Origin: a virus
Taxonomy: Duplodnaviria; Heunggongvirae; Uroviricota; Caudoviricetes
Strand: one strand, 5' to 3'
Length of the DNA: 64,000 nt
Virus record (IMG/VR): IMGVR_UViG_3300028585_000514
Part shown: positions 1,948 to 53,143 of the stretch, piece by piece
Position numbering within the stretch: position 1 is the stretch's first letter
Layout of the letters: each line of letters begins with the position of its first letter
Translations under genes and position numbers: made by a program
Notes under the pieces: generated by a model
Databases searched by the model: none
Told to the model about the DNA's origin: nothing
Seen by the model: only the letters and a program-made list of their open reading frames with translations

Positions 1948-1955
1948 TATTTATA
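1948..1955 (-). promoter_or_regulatory. T4-like late promoter TATAAATA
   Basis: Exact match about 20 nt upstream of tRNA-Gly. Confidence 0.7.
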
Positions 1956-2543: not shown

Positions 2544-2551
2544 TATAAATA
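2544..2551 (+). promoter_or_regulatory. T4-like late promoter TATAAATA
   Basis: Exact match 20 nt upstream of tRNA-Gly(GCC). Confidence 0.7.
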
Positions 2552-43159: not shown

Positions 43160-43236
43160 GGCGAGTTAGCTCAGTTGGTTAGAGCAGGAAACTTCAAATC
43201 TCTTGGTCACCGGTTCGAGTCCGGTACTCGCCACCA
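43160..43236 (+). tRNA. tRNA with a TCA anticodon (opal suppressor-like, not Sec)
   Basis: Perfect acceptor, D and T arms; loop CTTCAAA; weak anticodon stem; short variable loop. Confidence 0.75.
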
Positions 43237-44440: not shown

Positions 44441-44518
44441 GCGGTATTAGCATATGGCAATGCATGAGCCTACCTCAAATTGGCTGACTTCAGGTTCGAT
44501 TCCTGATGACCGCTCCGA
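44441..44518 (+). pseudogene. Degenerate tRNA-like element with a Gly-like acceptor
   Basis: GCGGT/ACCGC ends, GCAT/ATGC D stem, TCAGG-TTCGATT-CCTGA; irregular anticodon arm. Confidence 0.45.
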
Positions 44519-45727: not shown

Positions 45728-46074
45728 GCTGGCACCTTTTCGGCTTCGGCTTCCGCAACGATCTTGACCATCGCGCGGATGGTCGCTTCGACGCCGAGCT
45801 GGGAGTTGGCATCGTAACCGGTCGCAGCCTTGATGTCGCCGACTTGACGCCAGCCATCTTCGGTCTTGACATAGCCGCCGACCATGTATCCGCACTTGGT
45901 GCCATGTGCCGTGCTAGCGAAACGCCATGCCACGACTGCACCGGTGCCAGACTTGGTCAGGCTTCCTTCCGCGATTGGGCCGAAGCCTTGCCACGGAGTT
46001 TTCTTGGCTTTCATGTCACGCTGCACATCTTTTTGAATTGCAGCAATGATTTTGCCAGGGAGGCCAGTTGCCAT
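45724..46074 (-). CDS. Hypothetical early protein
   Basis: AAGGA RBS; TTTACA-N17-TACGAT promoter at 46110-46138. Confidence 0.85.
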   Translation of the reverse strand: MATGLPGKIIAAIQKDVQRDMKAKKTPWQGFGPIAEGSLTKSGTGAVVAWRFASTAHGTKCGYMVGGYVKTEDGWRQVGDIKAATGYDANSQLGVEATIRAMVKIVAEAEAEKVPA

Positions 46075-46195
46075 GTCGAAGTTCCTTTCAATAATTAAGT
46101 GGTATAGCTATCGTACCCCATGATTCCACGAATGTAAACAACTTTTGTGAAATATATTTTGAGAAACAAAAAAGCCACCTTGCGGTGGCTTTTCT

Positions 46196-46522
46196 TTATG
46201 CGTTCGGATACTTAGCATCGAGAATATCGATGTAAGCAAGAGGACTTGTACCAGGCTCAAGCGTGGTGATGTTCTTGAAACCATTCTCTGGAGTAATGAG
46301 ACTTTCAGTTTCATCGATTGCACCGTGATACTTACGGAAGCCAGGTTTATTCATCATCTTGCCTGTCGCTGGATCGATCGAACCCCATTGAGTCCAATCA
46401 GTCTTGTTGCGATTGTCGATCGGTTCGACGTAGTATGTTTTGCCAGTTCGTTTGGAGTGAACAATGAAGCGACCAGTGTCGTCAGTGTTAGTTAGGAATT
46501 TGGAGGCTAGGGTGGAGTTCAT
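46196..46522 (-). CDS. Hypothetical protein
   Basis: AAGGA RBS before ATG at 46522. Confidence 0.8.
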   Translation of the reverse strand: MNSTLASKFLTNTDDTGRFIVHSKRTGKTYYVEPIDNRNKTDWTQWGSIDPATGKMMNKPGFRKYHGAIDETESLITPENGFKNITTLEPGTSPLAYIDILDAKYPNA

Positions 46523-46710
46523 ACGATAATCCTTTATTTTCGGTGTGTCTCTGTTCGTTGGCAGCTGCCCATGTTTCCACGGAGACACGAAGTTGCTCTG
46601 ATAGCTTTACTGCGTAATTTAGTCGTTCGATTAAAGATTGATCGGCTGTAGTTGACATCGGAGCACCTATGAAAAATTAAAGAGTTATGTAGGGGTTGTT
46701 TTAAGTTATT

Positions 46711-46786
46711 TGGTGCTGACAACTGGAATCGAACCAGTGACCTCTTCCATACCAGGGAAGTGCTCTACCAATTGAGCTACGTCAGC
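46711..46786 (-). tRNA. tRNA-Thr (GGT)
   Basis: CTTCC-CTGGTAT-GGAAG; CCA end. Confidence 0.95.
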
Positions 46787-46933
46787 ATTGTTTTAATTCA
46801 AGCGAAATTTCCTCGCTATGTTAAATGGAGCACAGAGCGAGTGTGACTCCATCCGTATAATGGACTCATCGATGCGAATTACCGTATTGATTACTGAAGG
46901 AAATTTCCTTTAATTAACCTTTTGGAGGTCATC

Positions 46934-47326
46934 ATGGCAGGTAATCGTCAAAGCAGCAACGCAGGCAATTCGTCGGGTAGCGGCACCATCCAGGTGGAAG
47001 TCGAAGTAGCACGTCGTCTGAATGTCGAAGGCGTCATCTACGAAGAAACCATGGATCAGGGTGAACAGGTCATCAAGATTTCCGGCAACGGGATCAAGGA
47101 ACGTGTCATGTCCGAAGACGAAGTCAGTGCAATCTCCCGCTTCTTCGTCGGCCATCAGCGCCGCTCGGCCCGTGGTGGTCAAGGCGTCATGGACGGGCGT
47201 GGTCAAGTGCAAGACTCGGCTCACGATGCTCGTCTCAAGGGCAATGAAGATCAACGTCCTTCCGATCCAGATCGTTCGAAGCAAGCTGGTCGTGCTTCTG
47301 CTACCGGGAATGCCAAGGCTTCGTAA
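46934..47326 (+). CDS. Hydrophilic hypothetical protein, antisense to the tRNA array
   Basis: GGAGG RBS; phage-typical codon usage. Confidence 0.75.
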   Translation: MAGNRQSSNAGNSSGSGTIQVEVEVARRLNVEGVIYEETMDQGEQVIKISGNGIKERVMSEDEVSAISRFFVGHQRRSARGGQGVMDGRGQVQDSAHDARLKGNEDQRPSDPDRSKQAGRASATGNAKAS

Positions 47327-47564
47327 GCCTGCTGTACTCCGCAATTCACGTTACAAGGGCTTGGGACATCATCGTGAGGTGGTGTCCCTTTTTTATTGCC
47401 ACTAGGAAATTGACCTTCGTCAATACATACTTCGCCTAAAGGGTTAGTATGAATCATCGGCACAGGAAAAGGAGGTGTTTATCGAGAACTGTGAAGCAGT
47501 TAGCAGTGTCCATCTACGTAGTTTTCGGCGAGTGGTCTTCGGAGATTCCACTCGCCACTTTTAT

Positions 47565-47640
47565 TGGTGCCGCATGTAGGATTCGAACCCACGACATCCG
47601 CGTTACAAAGGCGGCGCTCTTCCAGCTGAGCTAATACGGC
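47565..47640 (-). tRNA. tRNA-Thr (TGT)
   Basis: Cloverleaf, loop TTTGTAA. Confidence 0.9.
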
Positions 47641-47645
47641 ATACT

Positions 47646-47721
47646 TGGCGGCCCAGACGGGTTTCGAACCCGCTACCTTTTGATTGACAATCAAACGCTC
47701 TCCCGATTGAGCTACTGGACC
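47646..47721 (-). tRNA. tRNA-Asp (GTC)
   Basis: TTTGA-TTGTCAA-TCAAA; ends GCCA. Confidence 0.92.
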
Positions 47722-47725
47722 GTAA

Positions 47726-47801
47726 TGGTGTGTTCGGCAGGTTTCGAAACTGCGACGCAGGCTTTCATATCACCCCGCTCTACCATCTGAGCTACAAACA
47801 C
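47726..47801 (-). pseudogene. Degenerate tRNA, apparent anticodon ATG
   Basis: Good acceptor and D arms and CCA; mismatched anticodon and T stems; loop ATATGAA. Confidence 0.55.
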
Positions 47802-47803
47802 GT

Positions 47804-47877
47804 TGGCGACCTATGCGAGACTCGAACTCGCTTCATACGCTGGACAGGCGTAGGTAATACCCATATACGAATAAGCC
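47804..47877 (-). tRNA. tRNA-Asp (GTC), variant body
   Basis: TACGC-CTGTCCA-GCGTA; ends GCCA. Confidence 0.9.
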
Positions 47878-47879
47878 AT

Positions 47880-47956
47880 TGGTGCTGACAACTGGAATCG
47901 AACCAGTAACCTCTTCCATACCAGGGAAGTGCTCCGCCAGATTGAGCTATGTCAGC
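47880..47956 (-). tRNA. tRNA-Thr (GGT), near-identical to 46711-46786
   Basis: Same anticodon arm and T arm. Confidence 0.95.
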
Positions 47957-47958
47957 AT

Positions 47959-48034
47959 TGGTGCACACGACTGGAATCGAACCAGTGACGCCTACCTTTT
48001 CAGGGTAGCGCTCTACCGTCTGAGCTACGCGTGC
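47959..48034 (-). tRNA. tRNA-Phe (GAA)
   Basis: CTACC-CTGAAAA-GGTAG. Confidence 0.95.
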
Positions 48035-48041
48035 ATATTGT

Positions 48042-48118
48042 TGGTGGAGCCTGTGGGAATCGAACCCACCAATGCTTGGTTAAAAGCCAAGTGCCTAATG
48101 CCGATCGGCCTAAGCTCC
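48042..48118 (-). tRNA. tRNA-Lys (TTT)
   Basis: CTTGG-CTTTTAA-CCAAG; atypical D arm. Confidence 0.9.
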
Positions 48119-48150
48119 GTTTCATGCCTTACGGCAATCTGATCAAAGAT

Positions 48151-48225
48151 CGGTGGGGTGGCAGGGAATCGAACCCTGTTCTTTCGGTTAAGAGCCGAGT
48201 GCTTCGCCATAAAAGCTTACACCCC
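48151..48225 (-). tRNA. tRNA-Lys (CTT), ends ACCG
   Basis: CTCGG-CTCTTAA-CCGAA. Confidence 0.85.
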
Positions 48226-48297
48226 ATAAATTGTTTTACAACTTCAAGAAAACTTGATATTATGCTTCTATCGACAACGCACTTGGAACTACATATC

Positions 48298-48576
48298 ATG
48301 ACCCTCGGCAAATTGAAGAAAGACGATTTTCCTGACATCGACTATGCACGTTCGTTGGATGTCAAGATCAAAGGTCGTTGGGTAACGATCTATAACTTCA
48401 TCCTCCGTAACTGGACCGTTAAAGGTCGCGAGAAGATTGCGCTGCGCGATTGGCCAGAGTTTGCGATGGTCACTGCTGAATATCCAGCAGATTCGCAGTT
48501 CCGTATCACGTCGACTTTGAGTATCATCCCATTCGATGACATGATCACGAAGATGCGTCTCGAAGGTAAGCTGTAA
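48298..48576 (+). CDS. Hypothetical early protein inserted antisense in the tRNA array
   Basis: TTTACA(48235)-N17-TATTAT promoter plus an ATCGACAAC leader; ORF. Confidence 0.75.
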   Translation: MTLGKLKKDDFPDIDYARSLDVKIKGRWVTIYNFILRNWTVKGREKIALRDWPEFAMVTAEYPADSQFRITSTLSIIPFDDMITKMRLEGKL

Positions 48577-48579
48577 GTT

Positions 48580-48655
48580 TGGTTGGCAGTGAGGGAATCG
48601 AACCCTCGACCTAACGATTATCGGTCGTTTGCTCTACCAGCTGAGCTAACTGCCA
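48580..48655 (-). tRNA. tRNA-Ile (GAT)
   Basis: AACGA-CCGATAA-TCGTT. Confidence 0.92.
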
Positions 48656-48704
48656 AGTGTCCGGTTACTAGCTCCGGCGTCCGCTATTATCACTGCGGCA
48701 GATT

Positions 48705-48781
48705 TGGTAGTCGGTTCGGGATTCGAACCCGATATCTCACGCTTATCAAGCGTACGCTTATGCCACTTAAGCTTCCCGACT
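48705..48781 (-). tRNA. tRNA-Ile (GAT), variant body
   Basis: TACGC-TTGATAA-GCGTG. Confidence 0.9.
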
Positions 48782-48794
48782 ATCTTGTTGTTGC

Positions 48795-48871
48795 TGGTCG
48801 GAGATGTAGGATTCGAACCTACGACCTCTTGGTCCCAAACCAAGCGCACTACCAGGCTGTGCTAATCTCCG
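48795..48871 (-). tRNA. tRNA-Pro (TGG)
   Basis: CGGAGAT start; CTTGG-TTTGGGA-CCAAG. Confidence 0.95.
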
Positions 48872-48952
48872 ATGGCGGTATGATGACAAATTGCTATCTG
48901 TCTAGAACATCATAGCAAACTGCGTTATCTAGAAATCACATTCAAACATACC

Positions 48953-49027
48953 TGGTACACGATGTTGGGATCGAACCAACGACCTCTTCCGAGTCATGGA
49001 AGCCTTCTACCGCTGAAATAATCGTGC
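48953..49027 (-). tRNA. tRNA-Val (GAC)
   Basis: CTTCC-ATGACTC-GGAAG. Confidence 0.85.
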
Positions 49028-49037
49028 ATTGAATTTC

Positions 49038-49116
49038 TGGTCAGTGGTGGAGGATTCGAACCTCCGATTTCTCGGGTCCAGACCGAGTGACTTAAACCTG
49101 ACTAGCCTAACCACTG
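49038..49116 (-). tRNA. tRNA-Pro (TGG), variant body with C33
   Basis: CTCGG-TCTGGAC-CCGAG; C1-G72, A73. Confidence 0.75.
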
Positions 49117-49146
49117 ATGTTGGGAGTATTTACGCTCCCATTTTTC

Positions 49147-49368
49147 TTACTCCGCTTTCGCAGTTTCAAGCATGGACATGTGTTTGCGAATCCATCTCAT
49201 GAAGAACATTCCTTTGTCTTCTGCTTTGAACTCTGCACCTTCGGTATCAACCATCGGTACTGGGAATTCGAAGCCGTCTTCGCAAACGTAAATCAATTCT
49301 TTTTTCTTGTCGGTGTTACTGAACCGGACAAACCGAACTACTCCGGAAACACGTTGCTTTAGCGTCAT
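49147..49368 (-). CDS. Hypothetical protein inside the tRNA array
   Basis: ORF ending ...KGMFFMRWIRKH... Confidence 0.75.
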   Translation of the reverse strand: MTLKQRVSGVVRFVRFSNTDKKKELIYVCEDGFEFPVPMVDTEGAEFKAEDKGMFFMRWIRKHMSMLETAKAE

Positions 49369-49385
49369 GATCAAATCTTTCTATA

Positions 49386-49463
49386 TGGCTCCGGTACGTG
49401 GGATCGAACCACGCTCTATGCTGATTAACAGTCAGCCGCTTACACCCTGCTTGCTCTACCGGA
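49386..49463 (-). tRNA. tRNA-Asn (GTT), variant body
   Basis: GCTGA-CTGTTAA-TCAGC; ends GCCA. Confidence 0.9.
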
Positions 49464-49480
49464 ATTGTTGTTTGTACTGC

Positions 49481-49556
49481 TGGTGCCTAGTGCTGGACTC
49501 GAACCAGCATAATTCATCTTGTAAGGATGACGGTTAACCTCTCACTCCAACCAGGC
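49481..49556 (-). tRNA. tRNA-Val (TAC)
   Basis: TCATC-CTTACAA-GATGA. Confidence 0.88.
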
Positions 49557-49574
49557 ATTTCGTTTTACTACGTT

Positions 49575-49650
49575 TGGCTCCCCAGGCTGGCTTCGAACCA
49601 ACGACCACTTGATTAACAGTCAAGCGCTCTACCAACTGAGCTACTGGAGA
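49575..49650 (-). tRNA. tRNA-Asn (GTT)
   Basis: CTTGA-CTGTTAA-TCAAG. Confidence 0.95.
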
Positions 49651-49656
49651 ATTGTT

Positions 49657-49732
49657 TGGGGTGAAAGAAGGGGTTCGAACCCTCACTGAAAGATTCACAG
49701 TCTTCCGTGCTAACCATTACACTACTAACACC
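49657..49732 (-). tRNA. tRNA-His (GTG)
   Basis: G-1 and C73; GAAGA-CTGTGAA-TCTTT; T.T mismatches in the acceptor. Confidence 0.8.
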
Positions 49733-49741
49733 ATCGAAATT

Positions 49742-49819
49742 CGGTCGGTGATCTTGGACTCGAACCAAGTTCTTACGCTCTTCAGGCGTACGCTGAATGA
49801 CCCCACTAGCTCATCACCG
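49742..49819 (-). tRNA. tRNA-Phe (GAA), variant body, ends ACCG
   Basis: TACGC-CTGAAGA-GCGTA. Confidence 0.82.
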
Positions 49820-49903
49820 ATTTGGTGCCAAACAAACATCAAATTCCCCTGTGGATGTTATGTCAAAGATCAGCACGCAGTTTTCCTGATCAAATCTGGC
49901 GGG

Positions 49904-49975
49904 ACCCACCACCTGGAATCGAACCAGGTCCTCTTCGTTCGTAGCGAAGTGTATTATCCAGTTTACTATGGTGAG
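49904..49975 (-). tRNA. tRNA-Arg (ACG), no encoded CCA
   Basis: CTTCG-CTACGAA-CGAAG. Confidence 0.88.
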
Positions 49976-50030
49976 TTAGTTGGCATCCTTGCAGATAACC
50001 TGGAGCATTTAACGTCCCAATGCTCTAACG

Positions 50031-50104
50031 TGGTGGACCGCCGGGGGATCGAACCCCGATCTTCGACGTGCAAGGCCAGTGTAATCCCATTATACTAGCA
50101 GCCC
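50031..50104 (-). tRNA. tRNA-Ala (TGC)
   Basis: G3.U70; loop CTTGCAC. Confidence 0.88.
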
Positions 50105-50107
50105 ATA

Positions 50108-50371
50108 TTACTTCTTGAAGATTGAATCTAACCACCAATGTGGAAACAAACCTTCTTCATACAATTCGTGCTTACGCAGAATGCCTGACTCGATATCCTC
50201 TTTCCACATTTTGACGTGGACATTCAGATATGTCTTGCCAACGCTGAAACCATTCTTTGGATTAACACGTCCTCCGTAAGATTCGGAGTTAAACAGCTCG
50301 ACGCAAGCATCGTCGCTGAAGTCTAGAACATGTTCCCAATGTCGTGCAAAGATTCGATATACTTCACACAT
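50108..50371 (-). CDS. Hypothetical protein (start uncertain)
   Basis: ORF between tRNAs; the N-terminal extension in the ORF track overlaps tRNAs and was dropped. Confidence 0.65.
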   Translation of the reverse strand: MCEVYRIFARHWEHVLDFSDDACVELFNSESYGGRVNPKNGFSVGKTYLNVHVKMWKEDIESGILRKHELYEEGLFPHWWLDSIFKK

Positions 50372-50463
50372 ACGTTTGAATTTGTTGCTAACACCATTGA
50401 TGGTTAGCTTAGGTTTACCTTGGTTGCGTTTAGCGATGTCATAGCATCCTCCATTTGTAAGTT

Positions 50464-50539
50464 TGGTGGTGACAGCGAGAATCGAACTCGCGACGACTAC
50501 GTTATGAGTGTAGCGTTCTACCAACTGAACTACGTCACC
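50464..50539 (-). tRNA. tRNA-Met (CAT), elongator type
   Basis: CTACA-CTCATAA-CGTAG. Confidence 0.9.
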
Positions 50540-50547
50540 ATATGATT

Positions 50548-50622
50548 TGGCAGGGGTACACGGATTCGAACCGTGGCAACTAGAGTCAAAGTCTAGTGCT
50601 CTACCAATTAAGCTATACCCCA
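50548..50622 (-). tRNA. tRNA-Gln (TTG)
   Basis: CTAGA-CTTTGAC-TCTAG; G73. Confidence 0.93.
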
Positions 50623-50633
50623 ACAGTTATTTC

Positions 50634-50723
50634 TGGCAGAAGTGGTAGGACTCGAACCTACAAGGACTATTTCGTCCGCCTGGGTCAAAACCAGGTGCGT
50701 CTAGCCAATTTCGCCACACTCCT
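50634..50723 (-). tRNA. Class II (long variable arm) tRNA with a TTG (Gln) anticodon
   Basis: CCTGG-TTTTGAC-CCAGG; GGAC-GAAATA-GTCC variable arm; Leu-like D arm; G3.U70; G73. Confidence 0.85.
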
Positions 50724-50741
50724 ATAATTCTTTTGGACAAC

Positions 50742-50770
50742 AAAAAAGGCGAACCTTTTGGATTCGCCTT
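50742..50770 (-). terminator. Intrinsic terminator (attenuator) directly upstream of the tRNA array
   Basis: AAGGCGAA...TTCGCC followed by U6 on the minus strand. Confidence 0.85.
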
Positions 50771-50800
50771 ATCGGATACTACTTAGATTTTTCTGTGATC

Positions 50801-50953
50801 TTAAATCTTCAGAATAATCCCCGATAAGGCTTGTGAGCGGTCATCATGCTTCGGTGCATTCATATTAAACGCAGGTGCAAACGCGACGACAACTGTGCGG
50901 GTTGCACGTTGAGCCGGTTTAGCTTGGCGGTTAATAATGGTTGCGAAGGTCAT
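50801..50953 (-). CDS. Putative 50-aa leader peptide (MTFATIINRQAKPAQR...HDDRSQALSGIILKI)
   Basis: Open frame ATG to TAA; codons 42-45 form the antiterminator strand; late box at 50993-51000. Confidence 0.65.
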   Translation of the reverse strand: MTFATIINRQAKPAQRATRTVVVAFAPAFNMNAPKHDDRSQALSGIILKI

Positions 50954-51196
50954 GATAGTAAGATTGCTCTCAAGTAATGGTGTTGTTAATTCTATTTATA
51001 GTAAGTCGAAGAATTTCTACGACGAACTCGTTGTTGTGTTATGCGACTCAATGAAAGCATTATAAATGTTTAATGCGTTTTCAGGAGAATTGAACACGTA
51101 ATAATCTGTATCAATTGTGCGTATGTTTCGTTGCCGCACCGTCGATAGTTTTATTTATAGCGCCTAAATGTCATCAGACCTTAGGCGTTACAACTT

Positions 51197-51604
51197 TTAC
51201 ACATCGACCTTTTCAAGGTCATCTTCGATACTTTGCAGTTCGATTTCGATCGCCTTGGTGCTGATAATAATTTCCTGAAAGGCAAGCACCAGGGACGCGC
51301 CTAGGAACACGAGACTCGTTCCGAATGCTCTCACCACATGGATGGGAAGGAAGTCCAGGAGGATCATCAGGATGGCCAGGGTACATATTAGGAACGATAC
51401 CACTCCAGTCGCCTGCATCCATTTGATCAGGGTGAGACGTTGTCTGAAGTTCGCCAACTGTTGCAGTACCTGCTCGGTTGACGTTTTTGCGTACTTCTCG
51501 TGAAGCGTACGGATACGCTGAGAGATGACCATGAAGCGATTTGTGTATGCAACCAGCAACATCGAAATGGCTGGGAATACGATAGCGGGCGTTTGAATTT
51601 CCAT
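51197..51604 (-). CDS. DUF2721-like membrane protein
   Basis: TPA..FPAISMLL.AYTNRF..I..RIR.L; three TM segments. Confidence 0.8.
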   Translation of the reverse strand: MEIQTPAIVFPAISMLLVAYTNRFMVISQRIRTLHEKYAKTSTEQVLQQLANFRQRLTLIKWMQATGVVSFLICTLAILMILLDFLPIHVVRAFGTSLVFLGASLVLAFQEIIISTKAIEIELQSIEDDLEKVDV

Positions 51605-51895
51605 AAGAGAAATTATACAATGAGCATCCAAACGCCTGCTGATTTCAACAACGATTATTTGATCTTTGCTTCGCGGTAGAGAACATGCTTACGTGCAACC
51701 GGATCAAACTTCATGAGTTCGAGTTTCTCTGGATGATTGCGTTGATTCTTTGTGGTAGTGTAGAAGTGCCCAGTGTCCGCAGTGGAGACCAGACGAATTT
51801 TGATAACGCCGTTTTTCTTTGCCATGATATTTCCTTAGAATGCCCGAAAGGGCGTGATGACTTATTTATCATCACGCCCTTTCGAGTAGATCGGC

Positions 51896-52330
51896 TTAGT
51901 TGCCTGGCATCACCGTGAAGCCGCTCTTGATCAGGCGCGGTTCATGATGTGGGTACAGCGCGATTTCACGACGCTTCGCTTCCGAACGACGGTTATACAG
52001 GTTCCGAGCCTTGACTGCGATCTCGGTCTCGTCCTTGGTGCCAGTACGAATCGTGAATTCGTAGGACACTTTCAGTACGTCGTCTTGATGGGACACGACT
52101 TCGAACTTCATGGCTTCGATCGCCTTGATGCTCGGGTCTTGACCAACCGTCGCGTTGTGATTCAACAGAATCATTTCGTACAGTTCTGGGAAGGCGACGG
52201 ATGGGTGACGAGCACCGACTGTCGAGGTCACTGCTGCAGCAATCAGGCGAAGACCCGAAGCTTGGAACTCGATGTCTTGCCATTTGCCACCGTCGAAACG
52301 GAATTGGAAAAGATTCTTTGCGATAGTCAT
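51896..52330 (-). CDS. Hypothetical protein
   Basis: 144-aa ORF. Confidence 0.8.
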   Translation of the reverse strand: MTIAKNLFQFRFDGGKWQDIEFQASGLRLIAAAVTSTVGARHPSVAFPELYEMILLNHNATVGQDPSIKAIEAMKFEVVSHQDDVLKVSYEFTIRTGTKDETEIAVKARNLYNRRSEAKRREIALYPHHEPRLIKSGFTVMPGN

Positions 52331-52348
52331 GATATTAGATTTGTGTGG

Positions 52349-52738
52349 TTAAGCGACGTTCTTGTCCAGAACGATGGTTGCTACTTGTTCGGGTTTGTGG
52401 TCGGCCGGGTAGGGAACTTCGCCGACTGGGTCCCACGAATGAGTTCGGGTGTTGTAGCTGAACACACCGACACTGTTTGGTTCTTCTAGGAAGTGCAGTT
52501 GGTTTTCCACGCCGTTGGCAGGAAACGCTGGTCCGGAAGTTACGACTTGAGGATAGGAGCGTTCTTCCGCATAGTCGTCTTCGACATCATCGTCTTCATC
52601 TTCATCTTTATCGTCGAAGCCACCTTCCGATGCGACATGGAGGATTGCTAGCGACAAGAAGAATGCGAGGAACATGGCATCGGTTTGTGCGCCGATAATC
52701 CATACTGCAACAATAGTTGCAAAGGTAAAAAAGTTCAT
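52349..52738 (-). CDS. Membrane protein with an acidic tract
   Basis: Two TM segments followed by a D/E-rich stretch. Confidence 0.75.
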   Translation of the reverse strand: MNFFTFATIVAVWIIGAQTDAMFLAFFLSLAILHVASEGGFDDKDEDEDDDVEDDYAEERSYPQVVTSGPAFPANGVENQLHFLEEPNSVGVFSYNTRTHSWDPVGEVPYPADHKPEQVATIVLDKNVA

Positions 52739-52783: not shown

Positions 52784-53143
52784 TCATACGGCTAAAGCCG
52801 CAACCACATTATTGGTGTTGTAGAACCTGGAAGATTGTTTCGCACGGAACTTATTCATCCACTGTTGTTCTTTTTTCTTCAACTCATTTTCGTCTTCGAC
52901 GTATTCTAAAATAACCCTTTTGAATTGAGTGATTCCATAATATTCGAATACTTTCTTAAAACGCTTTCCAGAACCACGATAGTCATCATGAATAATGCCT
53001 TTGTGACTTCCGACATAAAACATATCTTCTGGGATACACTTCCAAAGATAGATGAAGCCAGAGTACTTTTCAGGTTTTGGTTGGTGAAGGGTTTCGAAGT
53101 TTTCAAGGAGAGGATTTTGATGGGTATGAATGATGCGTTGCAT
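52784..53143 (-). CDS. GIY-YIG (Seg-like) nuclease domain, short
   Basis: GFIY...FYVGSH...Y.GSG...F.R.ILE...E; CATAAATA box at 53168-53175 (-). Confidence 0.75.
   Translation of the reverse strand: MQRIIHTHQNPLLENFETLHQPKPEKYSGFIYLWKCIPEDMFYVGSHKGIIHDDYRGSGKRFKKVFEYYGITQFKRVILEYVEDENELKKKEQQWMNKFRAKQSSRFYNTNNVVAALAV

Follow-up and report, generated by a model that had tools for sequence, protein, structure and literature searches.

Multivalent leader-peptide attenuators are known from the amino-acid operons of enterobacteria, where ilvGMEDA (Ile/Val/Leu) and thr (Thr/Ile) stand beside trpL, hisL, leuL and pheL. The genes for phenylalanyl-tRNA synthetase of E. coli, pheST, are attenuated via the pheM leader. 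The T-box riboswitches of Gram-positive bacteria bind uncharged tRNA directly and without translation; each responds to one tRNA, and Stem I and the T-box sequence are conserved among them. The tRNA genes of phages are usually viewed as constitutive cargo, which either corrects codon bias or replaces tRNAs destroyed by defence, and the literature on T4 and T5 presents phage tRNA arrays as a counter to the depletion or cleavage of tRNA by anticodon nucleases and tRNA-targeting defences. We know of no demand-sensing control of phage tRNA arrays in this T4/T5 anticodon-nuclease literature, and a full-text literature search returned no description of leader-peptide control of tRNA genes, phage or cellular. 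The leader peptide of E. coli pheV was considered as a precedent and rejected, as in K-12 the promoter lies directly against the tRNA and a Phe-rich ORF is lacking.

The locus described here appears, with a probability that we put at roughly 0.8, to be a transcription attenuator of the leader-peptide (ribosome-mediated) kind that controls a phage tRNA operon. It shares with ilvGMEDA and thr a short leader ORF rich in regulatory codons, by which more than one amino acid would be sensed, an intrinsic terminator before the first regulated gene, and an alternative helix that takes part of the terminator stem and whose 5' strand a ribosome would cover after moving past the regulatory codons. It differs from them in that the targets are tRNA genes and not biosynthetic enzymes, in that the leaders list 13 (or 6) amino acids and present nearly every anticodon once or a few times, in place of runs of one to three amino acids, and in the much greater length of leader A (50 codons). 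As in pheST, a component of the translation apparatus would be attenuated rather than a biosynthetic pathway, whereas pheST responds to one amino acid, has a protein-coding target and is cellular. The likeness to the T-box lies in a choice between terminator and antiterminator that would report the state of specific tRNAs and control genes for aminoacylation or tRNA supply; unlike a T-box, the phage leader shows a coding signature and has no T-box match. With the T4 and T5 arrays it has in common the regulated cargo, a large set of phage tRNAs that could replace those of the host.

The window, that is, the whole analysed stretch of 64,000 nucleotides, is the reverse strand of bases 53051-117050 of an IMG/VR virus record of 184,871 bp, the completeness of which is estimated at about 53%. 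The protein neighbouring the leader has an identical copy on a contig of 348,873 bp, and the top protein matches of the phage are huge uncultured phages. The phage is known from metagenomes alone, and its DNA is present in leaf-litter and soil metagenome runs. There are 49 tRNA genes in the whole record and 32 in the window, where 24 form array A (46711-50723, minus strand), which serves 13 amino acids: Gln, Met, Ala, Arg, Phe, His, Asn, Val, Pro, Ile, Lys, Thr and Asp. Orthologous loci in other metagenomes were found by synteny, via homologues of the adjacent DUF2721 gene and of an 83-aa gene that precedes a second cassette (B) of the same genome; they are L004, L005-L007 and L008 for cassette A and L012, L013 and L018 for cassette B. 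The surroundings of more distant DUF2721 homologues are unrelated and contain no tRNA arrays. Scans of IMG/VR with the neighbouring DUF2721 protein, the terminator pattern and the first tRNA gave no relative, and a pattern scan of metagenomes gave no hits.

The order of elements on the minus strand is that given by an earlier, sequence-only reading: TATAAATA boxes with a TATAAT, a 50-codon ORF, an intrinsic terminator and the first tRNA were all found as it had listed them. The ORF of leader A (50801-50953, minus strand) runs from an ATG through 50 codons to a TAA. Its first 39 codons form the sensing segment (50837-50953, minus strand), in which exactly the 13 amino acids of array A occur, all of them and no others. 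Calculated from the phage's own amino-acid frequencies, a run of this kind has a probability of 2.3e-7, and it is the longest of its kind in the six-frame translation of the 185-kb record. The match extends from amino acids to codons. A strict-wobble cognate codon is present in codons 1-39 for 16 of the 17 anticodon species of array A, and the seventeenth, Val-UAC, is represented by GTT in leader A and by GTG in the relatives. Arg appears in the catalogue as CGY only, which corresponds to the Arg-ACG of array A, Arg-UCU being encoded elsewhere in the genome. The last 11 residues (SQALSGIILKI) include Ser, Leu and Gly, which lie outside the array A set. Leader A is thus a catalogue of the codons read by the tRNAs of its own array. 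The sequence-only reading had taken the leader for a general stress sensor or an arrest peptide centred on an HDDR segment; this part of it does not hold, the segment being merely His, Asp, Asp and Arg, all of which are served by array A tRNAs. The tRNAs for Lys, Asp and Thr are confined to the distal part of array A (48225 and below) and their codons are present in leader A, which suggests that the entire array is a single regulated unit. The peptide belongs to no Pfam or PHROG family, and no useful relative was found when the leader A DNA and the 50-aa peptide were compared with a phage collection. The single DNA match there, a tRNA-Leu of Erwinia phage Kaldavass, was set aside, as the tRNAs of that phage are scattered among genes and have no cassette.

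Searching the record with leader A revealed a second copy of the terminator at the head of the other large array. This cassette B (G000:C1 135844-136085, equal to L002 1321-1562) lies outside the window and precedes array B (G000 136078-138697), which comprises 14 tRNAs for Leu, Trp, Glu, Tyr, Ser and Cys. The elements follow the same order, namely TATAAATA, GAGAG, a 33-codon ORF, a terminator nearly identical to that of cassette A, and the first tRNA 30 nt further on. Residues 4-22 of leader B (SSLYLLSCLEESSYSYCEW) all fall within the six amino acids of array B (19/19), and cognate codons are present for all 11 array B anticodons, including four Ser and three Leu isoacceptors. The probability of this run is 1.3e-11, and it too is the longest of its kind in the six-frame translation of the record. 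The amino-acid sets of the two arrays are disjoint, and therefore each leader fits its own array only. Together with the directly promoted Gly tRNAs, cassettes A and B account for all 20 amino acids. Those tRNAs of the record that stand singly or in small groups have promoters, and no further leader cassette was found upstream of them. As a separate observation, L003 (9148-9178; IMGVR_UViG_3300011793_000004), whose DNA is high in GC and bacterial-looking and which was the sole hit of the IMG/VR scan with the terminator pattern, has a tRNA-Val(GAC) with a terminator behind it that is almost the same as that of cassette B; judged from sequence, this likeness could be convergence or a hint to the host lineage.

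The leaders are better conserved than the flanking proteins, and the leader A ORF is kept, with 50 or 49 codons, at the three orthologous loci. Counted by codon position, the variable sites stand at 2:8:15 in leader A and 1:4:8 in leader B (3:12:23 in sum), most of them at third positions, and the leader indels, one deletion of 3 nt in cassette A and one insertion of 3 nt, are in frame. Replacements within the catalogues stay inside the set of the array, in 7/7 cases in A and 1/1 in B. L012 and L018 lack the TCG of codon 4 but have one at codon 11, where Cys has become Ser, so that each of the four Ser isoacceptors still has its codon. Beyond region 2, the 5' strand of the putative antiterminator, the peptide tail diverges freely. 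Taken together, the in-set replacements, the relocated TCG and the free tail indicate that selection acts on codon content and frame rather than on the peptide sequence, and they would fit an ORF that is translated.

These data also bear on the simplest alternative, in which the two ORFs are ordinary genes for small proteins with terminators of their own, the arrays are expressed independently, and the match in composition is a coincidence or reflects, for example, the codon adaptation of a late peptide. An ORF conserved in length at 50 codons and changing mostly by synonymous substitution is indeed also typical of a small protein gene, and terminators are common after short late genes. Such a gene, however, would not account for two unrelated peptides that each match their own array only (P of 2e-7 and 1e-11), for tails that diverge freely, for a Ser codon that is relocated while the residue is not conserved, or for a leader that belongs to no protein family. 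The gap between terminator and tRNA, which offers a promoter neither space nor motif, and the RNA contigs that bridge the terminator, both described below, point the same way, and we regard this alternative as scarcely credible.

The likely promoter of the leader-tRNA transcript is a TATAAATA box at 50993-51000 (minus strand). The motif occurs 8 times in the window against 0.95 expected, an 8-fold enrichment, and in the 185-kb record 19 of 19 copies stand upstream of a gene or tRNA and are oriented to it; enrichment and uniform orientation are the behaviour of a promoter box. It resembles the T4 late-promoter consensus and, like promoters of that type, has no -35 element and lies close upstream of transcription units; the copy at leader A is invariant in the orthologues L004, L005 and L008. 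Two of the 19 copies stand 19-20 nt ahead of single Gly tRNAs. These are divergent boxes at 1948-1955 (minus strand) and 2544-2551 (plus strand), each before one Gly tRNA (UCC and GCC), and Gly is the sole amino acid that neither leader cassette covers. In the gap between the terminator and the first tRNA of array A (the tRNA begins at 50723, 18 nt past the T run) no promoter-like site or motif was found. The weak Shine-Dalgarno-like element GAGAG (50967-50971, minus strand) lies 13 nt before the AUG of leader A and is kept in all A-type and three B-type leaders; in the B-type orthologue L018 the corresponding site reads GGAG. Elsewhere in the phage, genes have GGAG or AGGAG 6-9 nt ahead of the start.

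A second TATAAATA box is located at 51152-51159 (minus strand), 159 nt upstream of the first, and a small conserved ORF lies downstream of it (51017-51139, minus strand), between the two boxes. This micro-ORF contains FNSPENALNIYNAFIES and, at 51064-51059 (minus strand), a perfect TATAAT. In L008 it shows conservative replacements of codons by changes of several bases (N>S, L>V, A>S), and for this reason it is probably a genuine micro-protein. Similar TTGATACA and TATAAT motifs are found upstream of leader B.

The terminator of cassette A (50742-50770, minus strand) consists of a 10-bp stem (50770-50761 with 50755-50746), a 5-nt CAAAA loop and a U6 tract that ends at 50742; folded alone it has -13.1 kcal/mol. 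Its rival structure was already recognised in the sequence-only reading, which had reported a complementarity of 10 nt between codons 42-45 and 50775-50766, overlapping the 5' arm of the terminator. This complementarity is exact: GCCUUAUCGG (50830-50821) is the complement of CCGAUAAGGC (50775-50766), and one closing G.U pair extends the helix to 11 bp (with 50776-50766). Region 2, the antiterminator 5' strand, thereby occupies 50820-50830 and region 3, the 3' strand, 50766-50776 (both minus strand), where the last five nucleotides of region 3, AAGGC, are the first five of the terminator stem. When the upstream 150 nt were shuffled 20,000 times, 11 of the shuffles gave a helix of 11 bp or more with AAGGC in it, and the shuffle tests for the two cassettes give P of 5e-4 and 1e-3. 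The long hairpin formed by regions 2 and 3, with the stop codon near its tip, has -23.4 and -24.3 kcal/mol in cassettes A and B, and the fold of the 256-nt leader A RNA has a z-score of -6.2. In both cassettes region 2 begins 9 nt past the last catalogue codon and 27 nt ahead of the stop; its position inside the ORF is another difference from ilvGMEDA and thr.

The helix is conserved together with the terminator. The latter is invariant between ORF and tRNAs in eight sequences, and the antiterminator has 11 bp in 8/8 sequences of both cassettes, its pairs having been counted by script because the MAFFT alignment misplaced the helix columns. Between A and B there are three double compensatory changes (A-U to G-C, C-G to U-A and G-C to U-A) and one further pair that changes from U-A to G.U; three more single changes keep the pairing. 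Covariation is present between the two paralogues, as three compensatory pairs, and in three single changes, whereas the orthologues within a cassette are too alike to display it.

How a ribosome might influence this choice was modelled by folding the nascent RNA with a stretch of 31 nt held open to mimic the ribosome. The antiterminator has a probability of 0.8-0.99 when the ribosome is absent or has its A site on one of the catalogue codons (about 0.9 for the nascent RNA with no ribosome). This drops to 0 once the A site has reached codon 41 in A or codon 23 in B, and a ribosome whose A site lies on codons 41-47 of leader A leaves the 11-bp helix a probability of 0. The switch points of the scan imply that the catalogue run ends exactly where stalling ceases to favour read-through. 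The earlier proposal that a ribosome at codon 42 or beyond blocks the antiterminator agrees with this, and the wider proposal of a trp/his-type ribosome-sensing switch before the array gains from the scan as well as from the compensation between the paralogous helices, the coding signature and the bridging RNA.

The antiterminator overlaps the terminator stem at only 5 of 10 positions, so that exclusion is partial, and in equilibrium folds (-26.3 versus -28.8 kcal/mol for A, -30.7 versus -30.1 for B) the terminator is as stable or more stable, P(T) for the full-length RNA being 0.5-0.9. Given this stability and the overlap of five bases, the modelled switch must be kinetic, as in classical attenuators. 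No clear trp-like 1:2 anti-antiterminator hairpin is seen, and because of this the untranslated leader is predicted to be ON. A default of read-through would set the cassette apart from classical attenuators, ilvGMEDA and thr included.

The lack of a classical 1:2 hairpin leaves a place for a reading in which the same elements work with reversed or different logic, so that stalling would promote termination by way of a pairing partner lying upstream of region 2, or a protein or uncharged tRNA would be sensed in a T-box-like manner. The full-length MFE structure of leader B, the only fold with such an upstream partner, where region 2 is paired to the 5' UTR and not to region 3, and the highly structured nature of the leader are in accord with it. 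Several observations are not. A cmscan of 46000-52500 against Rfam at E <= 1 returned tRNAs only, and neither a Trp_, His_, Leu_, Thr_ or Phe_leader nor any riboswitch, T-box included; variation at third positions and indels that keep the frame indicate selection on translation; the nascent antiterminator has a probability of about 0.9 with the ribosome absent or on catalogue codons; and the boundary of the catalogue fits the forward logic. Reversed or different logic is accordingly very improbable in our estimate.

RNA assembled from four leaf-litter metatranscriptome runs (depth about 3; 1101 bases compared) yielded contigs that all lie within 50554-50923. Three of them (50554-50800, 50619-50811 and 50621-50843) span the terminator and enter tRNAs 1 and 2, and one (50742-50923) stops on the last U of the terminator tract; no contig covers 50924-51400, a region that is for this reason uninformative on the transcription start. 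The pattern gives a weak hint of a leader transcript that is in part terminated and in part read through, as the contigs prove neither ends nor the absence of DNA. The bridging contigs and the lack of a motif in the gap argue against a tRNA promoter downstream of the terminator.

Contigs that span leader and tRNAs would also be produced if the leader sensed the codons of the array but acted on how the precursor is processed or how stable it is (access of RNase, release of the first tRNAs), or if the translation of the peptide were itself the output. The terminator and a shortened antiterminator hairpin can coexist at equilibrium, as such an output would allow, and the leader region is unusually structured (z = -6.2). 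Against such outputs stand a canonical terminator with U6 placed exactly between ORF and tRNAs in both cassettes and invariant in eight sequences, a competing helix that takes part of the terminator stem and covaries, the contig that ends at the U tract, and a peptide tail that is not conserved. An output of this kind seems very improbable to us, and transcription attenuation is the reading followed below.

In the proposed attenuator, transcription would start at the TATAAATA box and a ribosome would load on the 50-codon leader, where codons 1-39 offer it one or more codons for each tRNA species encoded behind the terminator. If decoding is fast, the ribosome should have reached codons 40-50 while RNA polymerase makes the terminator; there it would cover or unwind the 5' strand of the antiterminator, the terminator would form and the array would not be transcribed. 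If any codon of the catalogue is decoded slowly, the cognate tRNA being scarce, uncharged or cleaved, the ribosome would lag, the 11-bp antiterminator would take 5 nt of the terminator stem, and polymerase would read through into the 24 tRNA genes. The net logic would be an OR-gated negative feedback on the supply of the tRNAs that the array encodes, and cassette B may exert the same control on its 14-tRNA Leu/Trp/Glu/Tyr/Ser/Cys array. Host tRNAs decode the same codons as the array tRNAs, and hence it would be the total pool, not the phage tRNAs as such, that is sensed. The expression of tRNAs on demand when host translation is damaged, which the sequence-only reading had put forward, is one possible use of such a switch.

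A broader proposal, to which we give slightly less than an even chance, is that large phages run an array-specific tRNA homeostat, a timed ribosome run with one codon per encoded anticodon, in which the loss of any single tRNA resupplies the whole set. It could be triggered by a mismatch in codon usage, by host shut-off or by host anticodon nucleases. If the attenuator is real, phages gauge the speed of decoding codon by codon and adjust their tRNA supply to it, and classical attenuation is extended to tRNA genes and to a multi-input OR gate of 13 amino acids and 17 anticodons. The codon list of a leader would then predict which tRNA shortages induce the operon and which genes belong to it, and the cassette could be used as a compact reporter of tRNA availability.

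Phage phiCbK offers a partial parallel. In the ORF ahead of its Pro/Lys/Leu/Ala/Ser block, 31 of 44 residues belong to the set of that block (P = 3e-6), and a terminator comes after the ORF; for the Trp/Gly/Glu/Asp block the match is suggestive, with P = 0.003 on a segment chosen post hoc, and the Phe/Val/Ile/Gln/Gly block is not significant over the whole ORF. Cassettes A and B are much cleaner than those of phiCbK.

Some features of the array and its surroundings may be recorded in their own right. Two genes upstream of leader A there is a homologue of ribosomal protein L33 (51655-51825, minus strand; Pfam PF00471, E = 3e-19), which is kept in L004, L005 and L008, and an ORF of the GIY-YIG (SegE-like) homing-endonuclease type lies near the array (52784-53143, minus strand; Pfam E = 7e-6). 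Inside array A, the gap between tRNA-Met and tRNA-Ala holds an ORF of 87 aa (about 50108-50370, minus strand), and a gene of equal length is called in L004 and L005. Among the tRNAs of the window, two of standard size have a UCA anticodon and are assigned to SeC by ARAGORN (43160-43236 and 44441-44516, plus strand), and another tRNA-His has the anticodon AUG (47726-47801, minus strand). The first tRNA of array A (50634-50723, minus strand) is a 90-nt class II molecule with a long variable arm and a Leu-like D arm that carries the UUG (Gln) anticodon and adjoins a normal tRNA-Gln(UUG). Its closest paralogues in the same genome are the Leu, Tyr and Ser tRNAs, and the relatives retain it, the anticodon stem showing a compensatory change.
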